Assembly (NCBI GenBank): GCA_017511045.1
Contig: JAFWLM010000015.1
Location: forward strand, 77,707-141,706
Direction of reading: 5' to 3'
Source: Lachnospiraceae bacterium
Lineage (GTDB): Bacteria > Bacillota > Clostridia > Lachnospirales > Lachnospiraceae
DNA: 64,000 nucleotides
Below the pieces are notes generated by a model. It saw only the letters and a program-made list of their open reading frames with translations. It was not told the DNA's origin and searched no databases. Shown one piece after another: positions 13,212 through 58,786 of the stretch; position 1 is the first letter of the stretch; each line of letters opens with the position of its first letter. Both the position numbers and the translations under genes were made by a program.

Positions 13212-14591
13212 CTATTTTCCAAGGAGCTTTTCGCCTATAATATATACATCTCCGGCTCCCATAGTTATTAACAGATCTCCGTTTACACAATTTTCTAACA
13301 AAAAATTTTCAATCTCGTCGAAAGTCGGGAAGCAATAGCACTCACGACCCGTTTTATCGATGAGTTCTTTGATATTTTCCGAAGAGATTCCAAGTGTATT
13401 TTTCTCTCTGGCTGCGTAGATCGGCGCAAGAACGACAGCGTCTGCCAGGCTTAATGCATCTGCAAATCCGTCAAGGAATGCCTTTGTGCGGGTATAGGTA
13501 TGCGGCTGGAATACGACCCAGAGTTTTCTGTGCGGATAATTTGCTGCCGCCTTCAGGGTTGCACGGATCTCATCCGGATGGTGGGCATAGTCATCTACGA
13601 TCGTAACGCCCCCTACTTCCCCTTTCAGCTGGAATCTTCTGTCAACTCCGGTAAATGCACTGATAGAGACTGCTGCTTTTTCTGCATTGATCCCCAGATG
13701 TGCCGCTGCTGCGAAGGCTGCAAGAGAATTATAGACATTATGTTCTCCCGGCAGTTTCAGGGCTGCATGCGCTGCATATGCTCCATTAATATAAAGATCA
13801 TACTCGGCACAGGCAAACTGATTGTAAGAAATGTTTTTCGCCGTATAGTCAAAATCACCATGAAGACCAAAGGTCGTTATCTCGCAGGAAAGTCCGTCAG
13901 TGAAATAAGAAAGGTCCTCGATCTCACCATTGATAATCAGAACGCCGTTATCCGGGAGCAGACGCGTGTAGGTTTTAAAGCTGTTCCGGATATCGTCCAG
14001 ATCCTTAAAAAAGTCCATATGGTCTTCCTGAACGTTCAGAATGATCTCCATCGTCGGGAAGAAGGAAAGGAAACTGTTGGTATATTCACAGGCTTCTGTC
14101 AGGAAATATCCGGAATGACCGATACGGATGTTTCCGCCGATTGCAGGAAGAATACCGCCGACAGAGATCGTCGGATCAGTTTCTGCATCCAGCAGGATCT
14201 GGGAGATTAGCGAAGTCGTTGTCGTCTTCCCGTGTGTTCCGGAAACGCAGACGGCACGTTCATAGTTCTTCATCAAAGCGCCCAGGAAATCCGCGCGGAC
14301 CATCATCGGGATGCCTGCTTCTTTAGCAGCTTTAAGCTCCGGATTGTCTTCTGAGATTGCTGCGGTATAAACGACCAGGTCGATATCATCTGTGATATTG
14401 GCAGCGGACTGTCCGATCATGATCTTAGCTCCGAGAGCTTCCAGCTCATCTGTCAATTCGCTCTGCTTGGAATCAGAGCCGGAAACTACAAAGCCCCTTG
14501 ATAAAAGGATGTGGGCAAGTCCGCTCATGCTGATTCCGCCGATGCCGATAAAATGTACATGTTTTTTGTTGTTAAAATCAAGTGTTGTCAT
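13212..14591 (-). CDS. murC: UDP-N-acetylmuramate--L-alanine ligase
   Basis: 459 aa with the Mur ligase P-loop GTHGKTTTTS and a MurC-type N-terminal Rossmann motif HFIGIGGISMSGLA. Confidence 0.95.
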   Translation of the reverse strand: MTTLDFNNKKHVHFIGIGGISMSGLAHILLSRGFVVSGSDSKQSELTDELEALGAKIMIGQSAANITDDIDLVVYTAAISEDNPELKAAKEAGIPMMVRADFLGALMKNYERAVCVSGTHGKTTTTSLISQILLDAETDPTISVGGILPAIGGNIRIGHSGYFLTEACEYTNSFLSFFPTMEIILNVQEDHMDFFKDLDDIRNSFKTYTRLLPDNGVLIINGEIEDLSYFTDGLSCEITTFGLHGDFDYTAKNISYNQFACAEYDLYINGAYAAHAALKLPGEHNVYNSLAAFAAAAHLGINAEKAAVSISAFTGVDRRFQLKGEVGGVTIVDDYAHHPDEIRATLKAAANYPHRKLWVVFQPHTYTRTKAFLDGFADALSLADAVVLAPIYAAREKNTLGISSENIKELIDKTGRECYCFPTFDEIENFLLENCVNGDLLITMGAGDVYIIGEKLLGK

Positions 14592-14782: not shown

Positions 14783-14813
14783 ACAGAATAATAGCGACAA
14801 GCCTTCTTGTCGC
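14783..14813 (-). terminator. intrinsic terminator after spoVG
   Basis: Minus strand GCGACAAG-AAGG-CUUGUCGC followed by a U-rich tail UAUUAUUCU. Confidence 0.55.
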
Positions 14814-31416: not shown

Positions 31417-32742
31417 ATGACAAACGAAACAAATACGAATTTCATTTGTGACAACATTAATGTCAACGAGCAGGGGCACCTGACCTTTGCGGGTCTTGAT
31501 ACTGTTGATCTCGCAAAAGAGTTCAAGACTCCTGCGTACATCATGGATGAGGCACGTATCCGTCACAACTGCCGTGTCTATACCGATGCGTTTAAAGAGC
31601 ATTTCGGCGGCGAATCCCGTCCGCTTTATGCCAGCAAAGCAAACTCATTCAAGTATATCTATAAAATAATGAAAGAAGAAGGCATGGGCATCGACGTTGT
31701 ATCCAGCGGCGAGATTCTCTGTGCTTATAAGGCCGGCTATGATCTCAGCATGGCTTATTTCCACAGCAACAACAAAACTGACGATGACATTTCCTTCGCG
31801 ATGGAACTCGGCATCGGCTACTTTGTCGTTGACGGATTCGAAGAACTCCATGCAATTGAAGAGGAAGCCGCAAGAAGAGGCATCATTCAGAATATCCTTC
31901 TTCGTATCACTCCGGGTATTGACCCGCATACCTATGTCCAGGTCAATACCGGTACAGTCGACTCCAAGTTCGGAACCGCAATCGAAACCGGCCAGGCGGA
32001 CGAGATCATCCAGGAAGCATTGAATCTTCCTCATATCAATCTGATCGGTTATCACTGCCATGTCGGCTCCCAGGTCTTTGCAGAAGATGTCTTTGAACGT
32101 GCGGCAGTTGTTATGGTCCGCTATATTGCTCACATTTACAGAGAGTACGGCTACATGGTAAAACAGCTCAATATGGGCGGTGGCTTTGGCGTCCGCTATG
32201 TGGATACCGATCCGTATCTGAATGTCAGTGAAAAAATCGCCGATCTTGCAGATGCGATCCACGCAACCTGCGCAAAAGAAAAGATCCCGGTACCGACGAT
32301 CGTAATGGAGCCCGGCCGCAGCATTGTTGCAGATGCCGGCATGACGCTCTATACTGTCGGTTCCGTAAAGAGAATTCCGTATTACAAGAACTATGTTTCT
32401 GTTGATGGAGGAATGACCGACAACCCGCGTTTCGCACTTTATGGTTCCAAGTATACCTGCTATACCGCGAACCGAATGAATGAGGCCCGTGACATGAATG
32501 CAAACGTTGTCGGCCGCTGCTGCGAAAGTGGTGACATCATCCAGAAGGATGTGGCGCTCCCTGTAAGCACCGAGCGCGGTGACATCGTAGCGGTCTGCAC
32601 GACCGGTGCCTACAACTACTCCATGGCTTCTCACTATAACAAGATCCCGAACCCGCCGATCGTTATGATCACAGACGGCAAGGCACGCGAAGTTGTACGC
32701 CGCCAGACTTATGAAGATCTGATCAGCTTAGATGTTGAATAA
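31417..32742 (+). CDS. lysA: diaminopimelate decarboxylase
   Basis: 441 aa with a fold-III PLP decarboxylase pattern (YASKAN lysine motif, GGGFG, CESGD). Confidence 0.95.
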   Translation: MTNETNTNFICDNINVNEQGHLTFAGLDTVDLAKEFKTPAYIMDEARIRHNCRVYTDAFKEHFGGESRPLYASKANSFKYIYKIMKEEGMGIDVVSSGEILCAYKAGYDLSMAYFHSNNKTDDDISFAMELGIGYFVVDGFEELHAIEEEAARRGIIQNILLRITPGIDPHTYVQVNTGTVDSKFGTAIETGQADEIIQEALNLPHINLIGYHCHVGSQVFAEDVFERAAVVMVRYIAHIYREYGYMVKQLNMGGGFGVRYVDTDPYLNVSEKIADLADAIHATCAKEKIPVPTIVMEPGRSIVADAGMTLYTVGSVKRIPYYKNYVSVDGGMTDNPRFALYGSKYTCYTANRMNEARDMNANVVGRCCESGDIIQKDVALPVSTERGDIVAVCTTGAYNYSMASHYNKIPNPPIVMITDGKAREVVRRQTYEDLISLDVE

Positions 32743-32769
32743 GCTTTTCGTAAATCCCCTAGACGAAGC

Positions 32770-32806
32770 AAAATCCGGACAACGAAATGTCCGGATTTTG
32801 TTTTTT
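32770..32806 (+). terminator. intrinsic terminator after lysA
   Basis: AAAATCCGGACA-ACGAAA-TGTCCGGATTTT followed by GTTTTTT. Confidence 0.75.
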
Positions 32807-33028
32807 CTTGTTTGCAACATCACAAACACTATGGTTCACAAGAAAAGTTGAAAAACGCCCTGTTTTTCTCTATGAAAACAAGGTATTTTGAATGGTTTTT
32901 CTAATAATTCTTGTTTCGTGCCCTATAAACACTAAGGAAAACAAGAAAGTTCAGGTATGTTCTTGTTAGGTATAGCCTTCACCAAGCCAGAAACAAGAAA
33001 ACAACAGATCTATCGTTTTCTTGTGTGA
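32803..33028. repeat. inverted-repeat array, locus 1 (TTTCTTGTT / AACAAGAAA half-sites)
   Basis: CTTGT cores at 32807, 32910, 32962 and 33020. ACAAG cores at 32838, 32878, 32941 and 32993. The core spacing 31-72-31-21-31 is identical to locus 2. Confidence 0.7.
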
Positions 33029-33049
33029 AACGAATAAGTTTTATACTTC

Positions 33050-35203
33050 TTAGTTTCCGCTGTTAAAGAGCGCTGAAAGTGTATCCCCCTTCTCTTCGAA
33101 GACGTTCAGCACATATTTATTCCAATGGCGCGCATCTTTCGTGCGGCTGCCGAAAACATAATCTTCCTGACCATAGTCCATAACATCAAAGCCCGGGATT
33201 GCTTTGCTGGCACCGGCAGTTCTGTACGCTGCAATATCTGCCAGGGAAAAACTTGCTCCGTTGTTTGCATCATAGCTGACCCAGTCTGAAATATCCGTAC
33301 CGCCGGCTTCTGTCGCTTCTCCGTTCGCAGTTTGCTCGGTCGGTGCAGCTTTCGTAATTTCCACTGCTCCTTCCACATGTTTTCCATACATGGTATCCAC
33401 ATAAAGCGCAAAGGAATCTCCCAAAATTTCAGATGGCACATGTCCGCCGTCCCACTGCCACTCGATATCCGCATCCGTTCCGGCATTCAGCCATGCGATC
33501 TGCAGATTTAGAGAATTGAACATTGAAATGTCCCCTTCTGACGCGCCCATCAGGATCCGCGTCCACGCAGGGTTTTCTGTGCCTTCTGCTCCGATATAAT
33601 TCATCGGGTCGTAAAGCTCTACAATATTATTTCCATAGTCATCGCCGGCCTCAACCTCTGCGATGTCTTCTTTATAAGCTTTAACCATCTCATCAAAGGA
33701 AGCATAATTTGCAGAGTCCTTTTGACTGCTTGCGGACTGTGTCGTTCCGGCATCCGGGGTTCCGACCATTGGTGCTCCACCGCTCGGAGGCCCTCCGTTG
33801 GCGAAATCCGGCGGGAACCTACCACCAGGACCTCCCATAATATTGCCGGAGCTTCCTTTTGCATAACGCCCTTCCAGAAACGCCTGGATTTTATCGGTTT
33901 TGGAAAGCAACGCAGCTTCGCCATCAGAATACTTCGCCCCGTTTGAGCCGAACCAGGTCCAGTCTTCCGCATATGCAAGACGGTCCAGATAGTCTGTCAG
34001 GCTCTGTTCAAATTCTGCCAGATAGAGATTCAGATAGGTGCCGCCATAGCCGTTTGTTTCCGTGCCATAAGCGTCTGTACTCTTTTGAATGGAAAGATCA
34101 ACAACATCGGTCTTGCTTCCATTCCCATTAATATCAAATCCAAGTTTCGCCTCATCGACCGACCATCCCTGCTCATAAATATACTGTGCATATTCTTCCG
34201 CCAGGTATTCTGCCAACTGCTTTTGGAACGGTGTGTTAAAACTATACGTGCCGTCCAGATAGTATTCAAATGCCATCGCCATATCGGCCTGCGCTAAAGA
34301 GGTGATCGCACTATATGCCATGCATCCCCACATGCCATCAGAAATCTCTACATCCTGACCGTCAATCGTCACTGCTGTGGAATAGCTGCCGTCATCATTC
34401 TTATAAACGCCGACTGCACCGGCTTTGATTTCATAATCATAGAAATCCGGATGATTAGATGTCGCTGCCAGCATTGTTGCATGTGCGCCGCCACCGGAAC
34501 CACCGGTTGAGACAAAATAGTCCACACAGCCCGGAAGATTTCCAAGCAGAATATTATATTTTACGAAACGGACCGCATTTTTCTGATCGACCAGACAGCA
34601 AGGCGCATCACCGGTGTATACGGTATCTCCGTTTGCATCGGTCATTGTACTCTGCTTCCCACGGTTTCCACAGGCCACATTGATATAACCCTCCGCCGCA
34701 TAAGTGGAGCCTGCATTCTGGTTCTGCTGCTCGCTGTATCCTGCCGCTCCCGTGTTGATAATGACAGGTGCGGTAGCAGCTGTATAGACCTGCCCATTAG
34801 TGCTGGTAATACTTGCATCATAATCAATGATCAGATCGCCTTTATCCTTTCCTTCAAATGTATCCTCTTTTCCGTCGCTATTCGTATCAAGCCCTTTCAC
34901 ATAAGCACCTGGAACACAGACGGAAACACCCTGTTCATTTTCAATCTCCGGCAGGACAACTGCCGTAACCGGACTCAGTGTCCAGGAATCAGTGTTTGCA
35001 GAATAGGTCCACTCTGAATCCATGTTAGTCAGGTTCAGCTCCTCTTCAATTGCTTGCTTCCCGGGATACTCTCTGGCAACCGCCGGAGCAGGTGCAACAG
35101 CACTGCCTGAAGATCCGTTTCCTCCGCTTGCAGTGCCGCCACAGGCACTAAGTCCGGTGCATAGAGTTATTGCTAATACCGGTACAATCAATTTTATTTT
35201 CAT
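33050..35203 (-). CDS. secreted lipoprotein, putative tannase-like alpha/beta hydrolase
   Basis: Lipobox LSACGG. The STGGSGGGAHATMLAATSN segment resembles the GxSxGG nucleophile region of bacterial tannases. The call is made by resemblance only. Confidence 0.4.
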   Translation of the reverse strand: MKIKLIVPVLAITLCTGLSACGGTASGGNGSSGSAVAPAPAVAREYPGKQAIEEELNLTNMDSEWTYSANTDSWTLSPVTAVVLPEIENEQGVSVCVPGAYVKGLDTNSDGKEDTFEGKDKGDLIIDYDASITSTNGQVYTAATAPVIINTGAAGYSEQQNQNAGSTYAAEGYINVACGNRGKQSTMTDANGDTVYTGDAPCCLVDQKNAVRFVKYNILLGNLPGCVDYFVSTGGSGGGAHATMLAATSNHPDFYDYEIKAGAVGVYKNDDGSYSTAVTIDGQDVEISDGMWGCMAYSAITSLAQADMAMAFEYYLDGTYSFNTPFQKQLAEYLAEEYAQYIYEQGWSVDEAKLGFDINGNGSKTDVVDLSIQKSTDAYGTETNGYGGTYLNLYLAEFEQSLTDYLDRLAYAEDWTWFGSNGAKYSDGEAALLSKTDKIQAFLEGRYAKGSSGNIMGGPGGRFPPDFANGGPPSGGAPMVGTPDAGTTQSASSQKDSANYASFDEMVKAYKEDIAEVEAGDDYGNNIVELYDPMNYIGAEGTENPAWTRILMGASEGDISMFNSLNLQIAWLNAGTDADIEWQWDGGHVPSEILGDSFALYVDTMYGKHVEGAVEITKAAPTEQTANGEATEAGGTDISDWVSYDANNGASFSLADIAAYRTAGASKAIPGFDVMDYGQEDYVFGSRTKDARHWNKYVLNVFEEKGDTLSALFNSGN

Positions 35204-53980: not shown

Positions 53981-54038
53981 TTTATCTGCATAGGAACGTT
54001 GAAAAAAAAGCCCTGCCACTTTATAATTGAGCACGATT

Positions 54039-56360
54039 ATGGAATCTTTCAAAGCATATGTTGAACGAATCATATACAGAAATGCTGATAACGGCTATAC
54101 AGTTTTGAGCGCCGAAGAGAACGGCTGCGAGACGATCTGTGTGGGCGTTTTCCGTTTTATTGAACCGGGAGAATATCTGGAATTTTCCGGTGACTTTGTC
54201 TTCCATCCGACATACGGCGAGCAGTTTAAGGTCGACCACTACGAGACGATCGTACCTGATGACATCTTCGCGATCGGCCGTTACTTAAGCAGCGGCGCCA
54301 TCAAGGGGATCGGTCAGGTAACCGCCCAGAGGATCATTGACAAATTCGGCGAAGATACGCTGCGGATCATAGATGAAGAACCGGAGCGGCTGGCCGAGAT
54401 CAAGGGGATCTCCCGCAAAAAGGCGCAGGAGATCGCGGCCCAGCAGGAAGAAAAAAAAGATCTCCGGAAAGCATTGATGTTTCTCGGTGGTTTTGGCATC
54501 TCAAATGCCATGGCTGTTAAAATCTATAATCAATATCAGAACGCGGTTTACGATATCATCCGTGAAAATCCGTATCAGCTTGCCGACGATATCTTAGGCA
54601 TCGGGTTCCGAAAAGCAGATGAAATTGCTTTTCAGGCAGGTATCGCTGCAGATTCCGATTTCCGTATCCGCAGCTGCATTCTTTATGAATTGGTGCAGGC
54701 TGCTTCCGATGGGCATGTCTATCTTCCGGACAAAGTGCTGATTCGGAAAACTCTAGAGGAACTCCGTCCGATCAGTGTGGATGATGTTCCGAGCATCACC
54801 GAAGCAGACATTGAACGATGCATGATGGATCTGGCGATCGAAAGCCGCCTGATCATTAAAACCGCTTCTTCTGATAATGCCATGGAAGAACCATCTCTTT
54901 CTGACAACACGGCCGACGACAATGAACCCCGTTCAGGAAATTACCGGCAGGTCTACCACTCCCTCTATTATTACACAGAGCTGGGAATTGCTAAGATGCT
55001 TCATGAGATCGATCTGAAAGGCCGCGTTCCGGAAGAAAAGATCCTGGAGCGGATCCACAAGGTTGAAAAGAAATCCGGTATCACTCTGGATGAAATGCAA
55101 AAGGAAGCTGTGATCCAGGCTGCAAACTCCGGCATTCTGGTCATCACCGGTGGTCCCGGTACAGGTAAGACAACAACGATCAATGCGATCATCAAATACT
55201 TTGAACAGGATTATAAAGAGATCCTTTTAGCCGCTCCTACAGGGCGTGCCGCAAAGCGCATGACAGAGGCAACCGGCTGGGAAGCAAAGACAATTCACCG
55301 GATGCTGGATCTTTCAGGCGAATTGGAAGATACCTCTGCCGGTGCACGTTTTGACAGAAACGAAGATAATCCGCTGGAGGCTGACGTCGTCATCATTGAC
55401 GAGATGTCAATGGTCGATATGTTTTTGATGAGTGCTCTTCTCCGTGCGATCGAACCCGGCACGAGACTGATACTGGTCGGAGATGTTGACCAGCTTCCAA
55501 GTGTGGGACCGGGCAATGTCCTTCGCGACATTATTGACAGCGATTGTTTTAAAACAGTAAAGCTGACCAAGATCTTCCGCCAGGCGGAAGAAAGCGATAT
55601 TGTTGTGAATGCACATAAGATCAACCGCGGGGAGCAGATCGCCCTCCGCCCGGACAGCCGTGATTTTATTTTTATCAAAAGAGAAACGGCTCAGGCTGTC
55701 CTGTCCGCTGTCTTAGGTCTTGTGCGTGATAAACTGCCGGGATATGTTGATACCGATGCAAGCGAGATCCAGGTTTTATCGCCTGTTAAAAAAGGTCCGC
55801 TTGGTGTTGAACACATCAATCAGTTTTTACAGGAGAGCCTGAATCCTTCTGCTCCCGGAAAAGAGGAGATTCCGGTTGGCGCCGTCACCTTCCGTGAAGG
55901 CGATAAAGTTATGCATATCAAAAATAACTACGAGCTGGAATGGGAGATGCGCACAAACAGCGGTTTTGTTTACGAGCAGGGAAAAGGAATCTTTAACGGC
56001 GACATCGGTGTGATTCAAAAGATCAATCCACACACCCGCCTGATGGAGGTTCGTTTTGATGATGGAAAGTTTGTCATCTACGATTTTGAACAATTAGAGG
56101 AAGTCGTTCTGGCATACGCTACCACGATCCACAAAGCACAGGGAAGCGAGTATCCTGCGGTCGTGCTTCCGCTGCTTTCCGGCCCTGAACTTCTGATGAA
56201 CCGCAACATCTTATATACGGCGGTGACCCGCGCCAAAAAATGCGTCTGCATTACCGGCTCAGATGCCGCTGTCACACGCATGATCAATAACGTCCGCGAG
56301 CAGAAACGCTACTCCGGTCTTAAAGAGCGGATCCTGGAATTCAAAGGCCGGGTGTTGTAG
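54039..56360 (+). CDS. recD2: RecD2-type ATP-dependent DNA helicase
   Basis: Walker A GGPGTGKTT, DEMSMVD, SF1B motifs (LVGDVDQLPSVGPG, TIHKAQGSE) and an N-terminal HhH region. ATG at 54039. Confidence 0.9.
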   Translation: MESFKAYVERIIYRNADNGYTVLSAEENGCETICVGVFRFIEPGEYLEFSGDFVFHPTYGEQFKVDHYETIVPDDIFAIGRYLSSGAIKGIGQVTAQRIIDKFGEDTLRIIDEEPERLAEIKGISRKKAQEIAAQQEEKKDLRKALMFLGGFGISNAMAVKIYNQYQNAVYDIIRENPYQLADDILGIGFRKADEIAFQAGIAADSDFRIRSCILYELVQAASDGHVYLPDKVLIRKTLEELRPISVDDVPSITEADIERCMMDLAIESRLIIKTASSDNAMEEPSLSDNTADDNEPRSGNYRQVYHSLYYYTELGIAKMLHEIDLKGRVPEEKILERIHKVEKKSGITLDEMQKEAVIQAANSGILVITGGPGTGKTTTINAIIKYFEQDYKEILLAAPTGRAAKRMTEATGWEAKTIHRMLDLSGELEDTSAGARFDRNEDNPLEADVVIIDEMSMVDMFLMSALLRAIEPGTRLILVGDVDQLPSVGPGNVLRDIIDSDCFKTVKLTKIFRQAEESDIVVNAHKINRGEQIALRPDSRDFIFIKRETAQAVLSAVLGLVRDKLPGYVDTDASEIQVLSPVKKGPLGVEHINQFLQESLNPSAPGKEEIPVGAVTFREGDKVMHIKNNYELEWEMRTNSGFVYEQGKGIFNGDIGVIQKINPHTRLMEVRFDDGKFVIYDFEQLEEVVLAYATTIHKAQGSEYPAVVLPLLSGPELLMNRNILYTAVTRAKKCVCITGSDAAVTRMINNVREQKRYSGLKERILEFKGRVL

Positions 56361-56549
56361 TCATGCGCCGAGACTTATCCTATTCTTATACGAGACATTG
56401 ATATCTCTCGAAACCAAAGCATTCTTTTCGTTCATGTAGACTTCACAAACATCATTTATATTTTTGACCGTTGAATCAAAACCCCATCCCGACATATGAA
56501 TCGTCCGCGATTGGGATTATTTCTCTTTTCATGTACTGAATCACATCAT

Positions 56550-57509
56550 ATGAAACGCAAGTCTGTACACAGGTTCTCTCAGAGAACTTTCTTTTCGCCG
56601 CTCTTCTTGGCGAAACTTCAAACAGTAAAAGAACATTGTCTGCAGCTTCTCTTTCCGCGGGTCTGTCCGGTTTGCGGAAAGATACTAAAACTGCCAAAAG
56701 GCTGGGCTACGCTTCTCTCACCGGAGTTCACGAATCGCGTTTACTCAGCGCAATGCTCAAAGCGAACTGCAGAAAACAGATCATTTCTTCCGCATCGACC
56801 ATCATTATCGGGTCCTGATACTTCTCTCCCCCTTAAACCATCTCTATCTTACTGTCGCTCCATCCTGATCTGCCCGGACTGCTGCTCTTCACTTCCTCTT
56901 GTAGAGGGACCGGTGTGCCAAAAATGTTCGAAGCCGCTTATCTTACAGGATGACTGTTTTTGCGAAAGTTGCCGGAATGGCACCCGTTATTTCAAGCAGG
57001 GAAAGTCGCTCTGGATCCACGATGACAGCGCACGAAAAATTGTCTATGATCTGAAATTTCATAATAAAAGAGACAACGCCGATCTTATCGCTTTTGAAAT
57101 GGCGGTACAGATGAAGTCGATCATTTCTGAGTGGAATGCTGAAGTCATGCTTCCTGTCCCTTTACATAAAAAGCGCTTTCGAGAGCGCGGTTTTAACCAG
57201 GCACAGCTGATCGCTGAAAGAATATCATTCTGGCTTTCAAAATTATTCGGTATTGTGCTTCCTGTAGATTCAGACTATCTGCTGCGTACCGAAAACACCA
57301 AACCTCAGCGCATTCTCGATGTATCCGCCCGCGCTCAAAATGTAAAAAAAGCATTTGTTGTTTCTACGAGAAATGGCCAATACGCGAAGCGCTCGGTTAT
57401 CCTCATTGATGATATTTATACCAGCGGAGCCACACTCAATGCCTGCGCAAAAACTCTGAAAGAAGCCGGAACAGAAGAAGTCTTCTTCCTCACCGCTACC
57501 GTGGTATAA
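56550..57509 (+). CDS. comFC: ComF-family phosphoribosyltransferase-domain protein
   Basis: N-terminal CPVCG and CQKC zinc-finger motifs and a C-terminal PRT motif VILIDDIYTSGATL. An unusual low-complexity insert of about 60 aa lies between the first and second Cys pairs. The start has no SD. Confidence 0.75.
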   Translation: MKRKSVHRFSQRTFFSPLFLAKLQTVKEHCLQLLFPRVCPVCGKILKLPKGWATLLSPEFTNRVYSAQCSKRTAENRSFLPHRPSLSGPDTSLPLKPSLSYCRSILICPDCCSSLPLVEGPVCQKCSKPLILQDDCFCESCRNGTRYFKQGKSLWIHDDSARKIVYDLKFHNKRDNADLIAFEMAVQMKSIISEWNAEVMLPVPLHKKRFRERGFNQAQLIAERISFWLSKLFGIVLPVDSDYLLRTENTKPQRILDVSARAQNVKKAFVVSTRNGQYAKRSVILIDDIYTSGATLNACAKTLKEAGTEEVFFLTATVV

Positions 57510-57676
57510 CTCTTTCTTTTGTCCCACTATGACGCATGCCCCACTCATTTACCTTATTATGACGCAAGCCTTTTTTTATATGTTCCACTAGTTGCATATG
57601 AAGAGATGTCCGCTATTGAACTCCCCAACTGCTGCCCAGATTACTTTTTGGGTGCGCGAATTTTACTAATTTTGGA

Positions 57677-57900
57677 TTTTCTTGTTTACCAGTGCGTAAA
57701 ACCTATAGTTAACAAGAAAACGCCAAAAATCCACCTCAATAATGCCTTTTTTATATGTTAAAAAGCCCTCTATTTCACATTTTCTTGTTTGCTGATTCGG
57801 AAACCCTATGCATGACAAGAAAGCCTATGAGGTTTCTTGTTAACATGCGGCTTTGAGAGACTTGAAACAAGAAAACTGCATTTTCTATTATGAAAGGACT
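57677..57900. repeat. inverted-repeat array, locus 2 (TTTCTTGTT / AACAAGAAA half-sites)
   Basis: CTTGT cores at 57681, 57784 and 57836. ACAAG cores at 57712, 57815 and 57867. The spacing is 31-72-31-21-31. A degenerate half-site (TTTTCTATT) follows near 57890, where locus 1 has a full extra half-site 27 nt after its last core (33020). Confidence 0.7.
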
Positions 57901-57903
57901 ACT

Positions 57904-58725
57904 ATGATGACTGAATCACAGGGATTAGAACATTTTATTAATAACATCAAGATTGAAAGAGACTCTTTGTCTCAACAAATTAATTATCTTCCACCAGGAG
58001 TCATCCGATGGTGGCGTCAGTTCAAGAATGGAAAAGAATATTTAGTATTCAGTCAGATTATCAATAATAATGATTCCCGCTTCATAACGAAAAATAAACA
58101 GCTCCTATCTCAACTCGCTGCAAAACACTTTTTGGAGCATCAAATGGAAAACATAGACAATTACATTGCCGCTTTAGAAATTGCCCAAAAAGAATCTCTA
58201 CGTATTACATCCGAAGCAGTCCTTAAAGAATTACCTCCGGAAATTGCAGATATCTGTCATGCAAACGATGCAGGTATAATATACAGGAAAGAAGATGGTC
58301 TGCTAAACGAAGAACAGGAATGGCGCAGACACGACTATATAAAGTCTGACAGTTTTTCACAGTTTTTAACCCACCGGACCAGCACAGGCGAATTTGTGAG
58401 AAGCAAATCAGAAGTAATCATTTACGAAGTGCTTCTTAAGTATGATCTCGCTTTTCGTTATGAATGCCAGAAATACATTGATGGTTATCCTGTTCATCCG
58501 GATTTTACAATTTACAGAAAAGATGGAAAGATCTTTTACTGGGAACACTGTGGGCTGATGAATCAGCAGGATTATATTGACCGCTATCATTGGAAACTGA
58601 ACAAGTTTGAAAAAGAAGGAATTGTTCCCTGGGATAATCTGATCCTTACCTATGATGACCCTTTCGGAAATATTGATGTGAATATTATTGAAAGTGAAAT
58701 ACAAAATAAACTTCTCATTTATTAA
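57904..58725 (+). CDS. hypothetical protein with a C-terminal PD-(D/E)xK-like nuclease signature
   Basis: RSKSEVIIYEVLL ... YPVHPDFTIYRKDGKIFYWEHCGLM fits an E ... D ... E-x-(K/H) restriction-endonuclease-fold pattern. The N-terminal 170 aa have no recognisable domain. ATG at 57904. Confidence 0.45.
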   Translation: MMTESQGLEHFINNIKIERDSLSQQINYLPPGVIRWWRQFKNGKEYLVFSQIINNNDSRFITKNKQLLSQLAAKHFLEHQMENIDNYIAALEIAQKESLRITSEAVLKELPPEIADICHANDAGIIYRKEDGLLNEEQEWRRHDYIKSDSFSQFLTHRTSTGEFVRSKSEVIIYEVLLKYDLAFRYECQKYIDGYPVHPDFTIYRKDGKIFYWEHCGLMNQQDYIDRYHWKLNKFEKEGIVPWDNLILTYDDPFGNIDVNIIESEIQNKLLIY

Positions 58726-58754
58726 AAAGGCGGCGGCGTTTATCGGCGTCAAAT

Positions 58755-58786
58755 AAAAAGGAGACAGAGTTTCCTGTCTCCTTTTT
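58755..58786. terminator. bidirectional intrinsic terminator (GGAGACAG-stem hairpin, copy H3)
   Basis: A5-GGAGACAG-AGTTTC-CTGTCTCC-T5, between convergent genes. Confidence 0.65.

Follow-up and report, generated by a model that had tools for sequence, protein, structure and literature searches.

Helically phased palindromic arrays accompany a variable nuclease gene in Lachnospiraceae

We analyzed a 64,000-nucleotide stretch of DNA from a Lachnospiraceae bacterium (NCBI GenBank assembly GCA_017511045.1, contig JAFWLM010000015.1, positions 77,707 to 141,706 of the forward strand), hereafter the window, which carries two intergenic copies of an array built from three 44-bp palindromic units (~205 bp in all). 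One copy, locus 2, lies directly upstream of a gene for a 273-amino-acid protein with a predicted PD-(D/E)xK nuclease fold, and the other, locus 1, stands apart from it. We found that these arrays belong to a family in which the motifs and their geometry are conserved while the intervening DNA is not, that the units are spaced by whole turns of the DNA helix, that homologues of the nuclease gene in nine lineages each have an array of their own, and that array and gene are replaced together between near-identical strains. From these sequence comparisons we propose, with moderate confidence, that the arrays would be the cognate DNA sites of the adjacent nuclease, the gene-proximal array acting as an operator and the solo arrays being dispersed satellite sites. 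We infer that the nuclease would bind the arrays and regulate its own gene, and that it may cut or recombine DNA at a motif in the centre of each unit.

Layout of the arrays in the window

An earlier note, made from the letters of the window alone, had described six half-sites of alternating orientation at each locus. A 7-mer search located all of them exactly, with TTCTTGT at 57679, 57782 and 57834 and ACAAGAA at 57712, 57815 and 57867 in locus 2, and TTCTTGT at 32805, 32908 and 32960 and ACAAGAA at 32838, 32941 and 32993 in locus 1. The start-to-start distances between half-sites are identical at the two loci (33, 70, 33, 19 and 33 nt); the spacing reported earlier (31/72/31/21/31) is the same geometry measured between 5-mer cores. 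The units (U1 to U3) and the sequences between them are as follows.

57677-57720, forward strand: locus 2 U1, with arm TTTTCTTGTTT (57677-57687), a 22-nt interior and arm TAACAAGAAAA (57710-57720)
57721-57779, no strand: locus 2 U1-U2 spacer, of unconstrained sequence and with no strong hairpin in this copy (z = 0.05)
57780-57823, forward strand: locus 2 U2, of the same polarity as U1, TTTTCTTGTTT ... GAAACCC ... GACAAGAAAG
57832-57875, reverse strand: locus 2 U3, of inverted polarity, centre motif GGCTTTG on the forward strand, 8 nt after U2
32803-32846, forward strand: locus 1 U1, beginning at the T-run of the lysA terminator (32765-32804)
32847-32905, no strand: locus 1 U1-U2 spacer, with a terminator-like hairpin (32858-32883) that is read on the reverse strand and placed to end the transcript of a tannase-like gene
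32906-32949, forward strand: locus 1 U2
32958-33001, reverse strand: locus 1 U3, of inverted polarity
33016-33026, forward strand: extra, partnerless half-site TTTTCTTGTGT of locus 1 (a seventh 7-mer, at 33018)

The polarity of each array is thus direct for U1 and U2 and inverted for U3, and the U2-U3 pair of locus 2 forms a pseudo-palindrome of roughly 95 bp (the array model matches its own reverse complement over U2-U3, E 1e-19). When the two loci were aligned, 75% of the columns were identical, nearly all of them in the arms. The extra half-site of locus 1 is degenerate in the orthologous array L019 and is possibly the relic of a fourth unit.

The earlier note had named a similar density of the motif in random intergenic AT-rich DNA as a point against it. 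Over the whole window, the TTCTTGT 7-mer occurs 19 times against 11.6 expected (3 of 100 shuffles reach 19) and so is not enriched window-wide, yet 13 of the 19 occurrences fall inside the two 200-bp clusters, and the geometry of these clusters is far beyond chance. A 9-mer allowed one mismatch gave 47 matches in the window against 26 expected, a count reached by 0 of 100 shuffles.

A family of arrays with conserved motifs and spacing

To find relatives of the two loci, we made one scan of species-representative genomes, with a pattern consisting of U2 and the left arm of U3, and one metagenome scan. The genome scan yielded 14 loci, 12 of them in two metagenome-assembled genomes (MAGs), with seven in JAZQCK01 (Lachnospiraceae bacterium) and five in CAMODY01 (uncultured Clostridia bacterium). 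Thirteen of these loci have the array spacing (33 / 69-70 / 33 / 19 / 33), and the metagenome scan added 10 further loci with the same spacing. U1 and the right arm of U3, which were absent from the search pattern, were still found at the expected distances, in either orientation. Removal of near-identical copies left 18 distinct arrays from related MAGs and metagenomes, so that further copies with conserved spacing, on which the earlier note had made its case depend, do exist. The arrays are intergenic and, in a clade of ruminant-gut Lachnospiraceae, number seven or more per genome. They lie between convergent, tandem or divergent genes, in either orientation, and several solo arrays abut stop codons. 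One array in the JAZQCK01 MAG (L022:2017-2126) has two units, a U2-U3-like pair only, directly after a stop codon.

The consensus from the 39 units of the first 13 arrays is TTTTCTTGTTT-N9-(C)AAA(G/C)CC-N8-(A)ACAAGAAA(A). The motif that the earlier note saw in some loops therefore generalizes to (C)AAA(G/C)CC near the centre of all 39 tabulated units; the form in locus 2 U1, AAAACC, is degenerate. Seven core positions per arm are invariant across 54 units, and 21 of the 33 arm pairs never vary among the 18 arrays, while the interiors and loops are otherwise ~40-45% identical between copies and effectively random. Arrays occupy orthologous positions in four pairs or sets (window locus 1 and L019, between lysA and the tannase-like gene; window locus 2 and L026/L039; L014 and L027; L016 and L024). 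As these are different genomes, motifs and spacing have been held while neutral positions became saturated, in keeping with the earlier suggestion that selection acts on motif and geometry and not on the filler.

Several other accounts of the motif were set aside. Long-range pairing or concerted evolution between units finds no footing in the unit interiors, whose similarity is 0.49 within an element and 0.43 between elements, with no excess for U2 versus U3. A sigma-70 promoter in each unit (TTGTTT-N16-TATAGT in U1) is present in a few copies only, and its '-10' column is unconserved across the 39 units. A looser pattern run against viral contigs gave 13 matches, all attributable to chance and none with the full architecture, which argues against a viral origin. 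The regulator boxes of SpoIIID, SinR, Rex, BirA, NrdR and LexA agree neither with the sequence of the arms nor with the 33 bp between half-sites.

The gene beside locus 2 encodes a predicted PD-(D/E)xK nuclease

The gene downstream of locus 2 had been called a nuclease-like orphan.

57904-58725, forward strand: nuclease gene, encoding the 273-amino-acid protein proposed as the cognate binder of the arrays

A search of Pfam and NCBIfam gave no match for this protein, and for its C-terminal domain only weak Pfam matches were obtained (DUF790/Bax1 and TnsA_N). A word-indexed search nevertheless recovered 347 homologues, and an exhaustive search recovered 3027 clusters at 50% identity (E<=1e-30), from which we conclude that the predicted product is a member of a large unannotated family; the designation as an orphan falls, and the nuclease assignment stands. 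In the AlphaFold (AF2) model (predicted local distance difference test score 92.6), the N-terminal half comprises a helix (residues 4-27), a three-stranded β-sheet (33-60) and a long helix (65-100), and the C-terminal part (150-273) is an α/β domain with the motifs RSKSE, FRYE, PDF and WEHxG. Residues invariant in the family alignment include G162, R166, S167, E170, D200, F201, E214 and H215, among them the acidic, catalytic-type residues E170, D200 and E214, and K168 is nearly invariant.

Foldseek comparison of the C-terminal domain with the PDB returned VRR-NUC (4qbn, probability 0.99), the R2 retrotransposon endonuclease, McrC and NucS, and comparison with BFVD returned phage entries with the names homing endonuclease, Holliday junction resolvase, group I intron-associated VSR homing endonuclease and TnsA N-terminal domain protein. 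In PADLOC the match was to PDC-S68, a candidate defence protein, at its C-terminus (E 2e-32). Together, the modelled fold and the invariant residues confirm the C-terminal domain as a predicted PD-(D/E)xK nuclease of the Vsr/TnsA/VRR-NUC kind. The N-terminal half evolves fast, with family identity of 15-25% compared to about 50% for the C-terminal half. A literature search on the array motif, PDC-S68, standalone TnsA-like nucleases and Lachnospiraceae repeats found nothing relevant.

Arrays accompany the nuclease gene in nine lineages

We surveyed the DNA around nuclease homologues from nine lineages. In all nine, an array of two to five inverted-repeat units lies directly upstream of the nuclease gene and ends beside its ribosome-binding site (RBS) or promoter. 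The arms are lineage-specific, and closely related pairs of nucleases have the same or similar arms.

L026/L039: protein 80% identical to that of the window, arm TTTTCTTGTTT
L042: protein 53% identical to that of the window, arm TTTTCTGAC
L043: protein 38% identical to that of the window, arm TTTTCCAAC
L047: arm TTTTGTCCGC
L049: arm TTTCCGCCAAAT
L050: arm AATGTCGTATG
L051: arm TTTTGTCAAC
L045: arm TTTTGCCAAC
L048: arm of a related GGCCAAC form

The gene contexts of nuclease and array are unrelated, and include comFC/H+-PPase, a dnaK-prmA operon, the ornithine ord/ora operon, the gap between uppS and cdsA, and a position upstream of rimP. Within conserved operons the pair forms a compact insert (L045/L048 in ord/ora; L051 between uppS and cdsA; L047/L049 after prmA in the dnaK operon). 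No half-sites were found downstream of the nuclease gene in the lineages examined. In three lineages (L043:3028-3071, L045:10024-10061 and L050:10062-10072), the series of half-sites extends past the start of the nuclease gene, over its first 20-70 nt of coding sequence, and those within the L043 coding sequence make a complete unit with the canonical 33-bp offset.

The window array reaches a candidate promoter of the nuclease gene.

57862-57891, forward strand: promoter-like site TTGAAA-18-TATTAT, overlapping the right arm of locus 2 U3

Comparable arrangements occur in other lineages. L039 has a promoter-like site, TTGAGA-18-TATAAT (11/12), whose spacer takes in the right arm of U3 and whose predicted start is downstream of the array; in L051 a half-site follows TATAAT at once, and in L047 an arm doubles as the -35 element. 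As U3 of locus 2 overlaps the promoter-like site, this array would be an autoregulatory operator.

Array and nuclease gene are exchanged as one cassette

A comparison of near-identical strains located a block that differs as a whole.

57508-58754, forward strand: cassette that varies between strains (upstream leader, array and nuclease gene), near-identical strains having a different allele of the whole block

Both flanks of L042 match the window closely, with 96% identity through comFC and 99% over 2.7 kb towards H+-PPase. In place of 57508-58754, L042 has an array with different arms (TTTTCTGAC) and a gene that can be aligned in its 3' part alone (71% nucleotide identity). The divergence of the protein is concentrated accordingly, as the N-terminal halves are 34% identical and the C-terminal halves 72%. 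Both alleles coexist in three sheep-gut runs (X17, X18 and X20), where Logan contigs contained one joint from 57507 to 58755 and others with loose ends after 57507 that read into L042 sequence. We conclude that array and nuclease are exchanged together between strains as one cassette. The arms and the N-terminal half change as a unit, as predicted by a cognate protein-site pair.

The units are spaced by turns of the DNA helix

From one unit to the next, equivalent half-sites lie 103 and 52 bp apart in the window family. The sets in other lineages are 113, 53, 103; 51, 50, 51; 52, 50, 51; 83, 62, 83; 83, 52; and 53. These distances fit a period of 10.3 bp (mean cosine 0.88), a fit reached by ~0.01% of random sets even when distinct distances are counted once. 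Spacing in steps of a helical turn belongs to duplex DNA that has proteins bound along one face and is meaningless for RNA, and the phasing therefore points to same-face binding at the DNA level. The earlier note had left a choice between a cooperative DNA-binding array and a three-hairpin RNA; the multiples of 10.3 bp, the occurrence in all gene contexts and orientations and the predicted promoters within or at the edge of the gene-proximal arrays favour the former.

Within the array, the U1-U2 spacer contains a strong hairpin (A-run, GC stem, T-run) in 6-8 of the 18 arrays, of different sequence each time. We read these hairpins as ordinary bidirectional terminators lodged in the sole unconstrained stretch of the array.

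Solo arrays are gained, lost and rearranged

Locus 1 is absent from relatives that are ~92% identical in lysA (runs X17, X18 and X20), in which contigs join 32801 to 33078 through 58 other letters, or 32742 to 33093 through 134. In a third contig form from the same runs, the match to U1 is confined to its first 10 nt and divergent sequence follows (32811 to 33044). Relatives of lysA at 85-90% protein identity (closest: Parasporobacterium sp.) have other neighbouring genes and no array.

BLAST comparison of L016:2048-2251 with L024:1645-1852 showed an element whose outer ends are conserved and whose interior runs the opposite way. The two flanking genes are 94-95% identical at the protein level (94% for a thrH-like gene), and the gene past the far end differs. 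The array of L016 and L024 marks a rearrangement point, and the opposite orientation indicates an in-place inversion across U1 and U3. No orientation polymorphism was seen in window-strain contigs of four runs or in near-identical metagenome copies, and minor forms are hidden in contigs.

A model for the arrays and their nuclease

In the model that we favour, each 44-bp unit, with two inverted 11-bp arms whose centres lie 33 bp apart and an asymmetric centre motif, would dock a nuclease dimer or higher oligomer. The fast-evolving N-terminal half would read the arms, and the centre motif would be covered by the conserved nuclease domain. As the units share a helical face and are separated by 5 and 10 turns, the bound proteins could cooperate, and occupancy of the last unit of locus 2, which overlaps the gene promoter, would make that array an autoregulatory operator. 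Locus 1 and the further copies, at least 7 per related genome, would be solo satellites with the same arms, whose integrity selection or the ongoing activity of the enzyme would maintain. These satellites would be gained and lost between close relatives and could invert between U1 and U3.

Several points weigh against this model. Co-occurrence and co-variation are the basis for linking protein and site. PDB searches with the N-terminal half returned coiled coils and no recognized DNA-binding fold, and its Pfam matches are weak and single (Arm-DNA-bind_3). In L050 a strong predicted promoter lies upstream of the whole array, which would there be a transcribed leader, so that an RNA-level role is possible. 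No solo arrays were found in ~20 kb around the nuclease genes of other lineages, and solo arrays are shown only in the window clade. In strains with the other nuclease allele, solo arrays presumably no longer match the nuclease. Finally, intact sites beside an apparently active nuclease are a paradox unless cutting is restrained.

A further proposal, which we put forward only tentatively and consider less probable than not, is that the pair represents an undescribed class of sites and enzymes. Here a hypervariable nuclease, with specificity from its N-terminal half, would recognize phased 44-bp palindromes, autoregulate, and nick or recombine satellites at the centre motif, leading to insertion, loss and inversion. 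Such a class would be an analogue on another fold of the systems of repetitive extragenic palindromes (REP) and their REP-associated tyrosine transposases (RAYT), and widespread in Clostridia (>3000 clusters).

Alternative explanations

One alternative is that some other chromosomal factor (nucleoid-associated, concerned with segregation or replication, or a global regulator) binds the arrays, and that the nuclease gene merely belongs to its regulon. Solo arrays are intergenic, seven or more per MAG, orthologous across genus-level divergence and helically phased, a pattern that resembles Ter, parS or operator sets, and Tus/TerB and RTP/TerI are precedents for one site lying beside the binder's gene. 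We consider this explanation unlikely, however, as the arms change with the nuclease allele within one species between flanks that are 96-99% identical, such that a separate factor would have to change in step, and as every nuclease homologue examined carries its own array in unrelated contexts. A polar fork trap in particular is disfavoured, as array orientation is mixed with respect to local GC skew (negative at 12 loci and positive at 7, in short MAG windows and not whole chromosomes).

We assign an even smaller chance to a structured RNA, in which three hairpins (9-11-bp stems with ~22-nt loops) in untranslated regions would serve stability, processing or as a protein-binding leader. The arms do differ between lineages yet remain complementary, the L050 array lies between a strong promoter and an RBS, several solo arrays abut stop codons as REP elements do, and both array strands fold better than shuffles (z = -3.1 and -3.0); this last excess is trivially expected of inverted repeats. 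Against such an RNA, Rfam at gathering thresholds (cmscan, window) identified only Clostridiales-1 and the lysine riboswitch, both away from the arrays, and a permissive E-value scan of both loci gave sub-threshold noise only. The compensatory changes that the earlier note had named as the mark of an RNA do not rise above chance in the 18-array alignment, where the stem covariation score was 0.032, compared to 0.028 in shuffled alignments (equalled or exceeded in 122 of 500), the arm cores are invariant and the outer pairs mostly break rather than compensate. For the same reason, the two exclusive folds envisaged in that note lose their basis: the second register read from the alternating half-sites exists, but only once per array (U2-right/U3-left, with 12 nt between the 7-mer cores). 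In addition, one sequence is common to all 54 stems, which structure alone does not require, the spacing is a property of duplex DNA, and arrays are found in either orientation with respect to transcription of the flanking genes, as well as between terminators. The predicted start in L039 falls downstream of the array, and metatranscriptome Logan contigs end before locus 1, at the lysA terminator (32777 and 32790), with nothing over 32872-33015, at a low depth that cannot count as absence.

Two explanations invoke mobility of the DNA itself, and we give each of them a similarly slim chance. In the first, U1 and U3 would be inverted recombination sites of a site-specific switch, and flipping of the spacer and U2 would alter expression of a neighbour. 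The inverted interior of L016 relative to L024 and the asymmetric centre of each unit, which is like a crossover region, fit such a switch, but orientation differs in only one of the four orthologous pairs, contigs from the same strain all agree, and the distal flank of L016 and L024 differs too. Moreover, no serine or tyrosine recombinase gene is adjacent, the neighbours of locus 2 (recD2, comFC, the nuclease gene and H+-PPase) containing no recombinase domain, and the spacer hairpins are symmetric terminators whose effect would be unchanged on flipping. In the second, solo arrays would be decaying non-autonomous elements of the kind of miniature inverted-repeat transposable elements (MITEs), with no function for host or enzyme. 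This is consistent with the dispersed copies, the presence/absence polymorphism at locus 1, the two-unit variant L022 and outer arms that resemble terminal inverted repeats. It accords poorly with copies within a genome that are random outside the motifs and invariant within them, as neutral decay would erode both, with the persistence of orthologous copies across genus-level divergence, and with the outcome of a search for target-site duplications at the array ends, where none was seen.

Gene context in the window

Locus 2 is bounded by the nuclease gene on one side and by a comF-family gene (56496-57509) on the other, and recD2 (54027-56360) precedes the comF-family gene. The comF-family open reading frame has 337 codons from its first ATG, compared to 291 residues in the orthologues of L026 and L039, and its N-terminal 46 residues may reflect a wrongly chosen start codon. 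Between 52000 and 64000, GC skew climbs from ~-0.1 to ~0 past roughly 52 kb, where gene orientation is also mixed; no clear signature of an origin or terminus was seen in the GC skew of this region.

Locus 1 lies between convergent genes, lysA (31417-32742) and the tannase-like gene (33050-35203, reverse strand), and therefore cannot be an upstream operator of any gene. A lysine riboswitch (RF00168; 31184-31350, forward strand, 76.2 bits) precedes lysA. Elsewhere in the window, a Clostridiales-1 RNA (RF01699; 14614-14783, reverse strand, 80.4 bits) lies just upstream of a gene on the same strand (13212-14591), and a lone TTCTTGT near this RNA, at 14804, appears unrelated to the arrays.

Implications

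If the proposed pairing of nuclease and array is correct, a large protein family that lacks annotation and a Pfam model (>3000 clusters at 50% identity) would gain a role, and Gram-positive gut anaerobes, in which we know of no REP/RAYT-like system, would have a dispersed chromosomal repeat of a new kind. Within one species, the two alleles differ both in their arms and in their N-terminal halves, and they would amount to a natural specificity-swap experiment for a protein-DNA recognition code. As the arrays mark rearrangement, gain and loss between close strains, they could also be useful for strain typing and for following genome plasticity in rumen Lachnospiraceae.

Comparison with known systems

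We regard the site-enzyme pair as undescribed. The array can be classed with dispersed palindromic repeats that are paired with the gene of a cognate enzyme, and we place it in no known family because it departs from the defining features of each in enzyme type, in the presence of repeats on both sides of the gene or in replication polarity. The earlier remark that no catalogued element type fits therefore holds: there is no Rfam match, and the array is neither a T-box nor an attC site. Nor is it an array of clustered regularly interspaced short palindromic repeats (CRISPR), as its arms are inverted, its interiors share a conserved centre motif and it has three units only. A MITE is set aside likewise, as the outer arms are inverted but end duplications are lacking and interiors are ~40-45% identical between copies.

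The res sites of Tn3-family transposons consist of three subsites of 25-34 bp, each an inverted pair of half-sites, located beside the binder's gene within the transposon. The arrays similarly have three subsites with one long and one short gap and adjoin the gene of the proposed binder. In contrast to res, their subsites are 44 bp, they have dispersed chromosomal copies, and no serine recombinase is found among their neighbours.

Tus-TerB of Escherichia coli and RTP-TerI/II of Bacillus subtilis comprise about ten dispersed polar sites, one of which overlaps the promoter of the binder's gene and confers autoregulation, and in B. subtilis the RTP gene is immediately preceded by two composite sites in inverted arrangement. 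The proposed model likewise has one site at the binder's own promoter. The protein here, however, has a nuclease fold with catalytic-type residues, unlike Tus or the winged-helix RTP, array orientation does not follow replication polarity as judged by GC skew, and a strain-swapped cassette would be unexpected for a core replication function.

A closer match in protein architecture is provided by I-Bth0305I, a Vsr-like (EDxHD) homing endonuclease that is reported to act as a homodimer with a ~60-bp footprint on a pseudo-palindromic target (PMC3239194). This enzyme is also multidomain, with an N-terminal recognition part and a C-terminal Vsr-like nuclease domain (PMC3239194). By analogy, I-Bth0305I makes the proposed architecture of nuclease and array plausible. 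The window nuclease shares with Vsr-like homing endonucleases its fold matches in BFVD and a location between conserved operon genes, and the placement of nuclease and array as an operon insert resembles that of free-standing phage homing endonuclease genes. There is, however, no detectable sequence match between the window nuclease and the solved I-Bth0305I chain. Moreover, the nuclease gene is not in an intron or intein, and its sites are intact, multiplied and upstream of the gene rather than destroyed by its insertion; no empty alleles of the nuclease gene site were recovered.

The closest functional analogue is the pairing of REP, and of the bacterial interspersed mosaic elements (BIMEs) built from them, with RAYT. 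In Proteobacteria, these short intergenic palindromes occur in hundreds of copies, are associated with an HUH Y1 transposase (RAYT) and flank its gene on both sides. By contrast, the enzyme here is of the PD-(D/E)xK type, repeats are on one side of the gene only, 5-7 copies were recovered per MAG, and the 44-bp units have 22-nt unconstrained interiors, with the motifs alone conserved. The two systems are alike in having clustered, alternating palindromes with fixed linkers, one single-copy enzyme gene beside a copy, repeats that are lineage-specific for each enzyme, and units that often abut stop codons and terminators.

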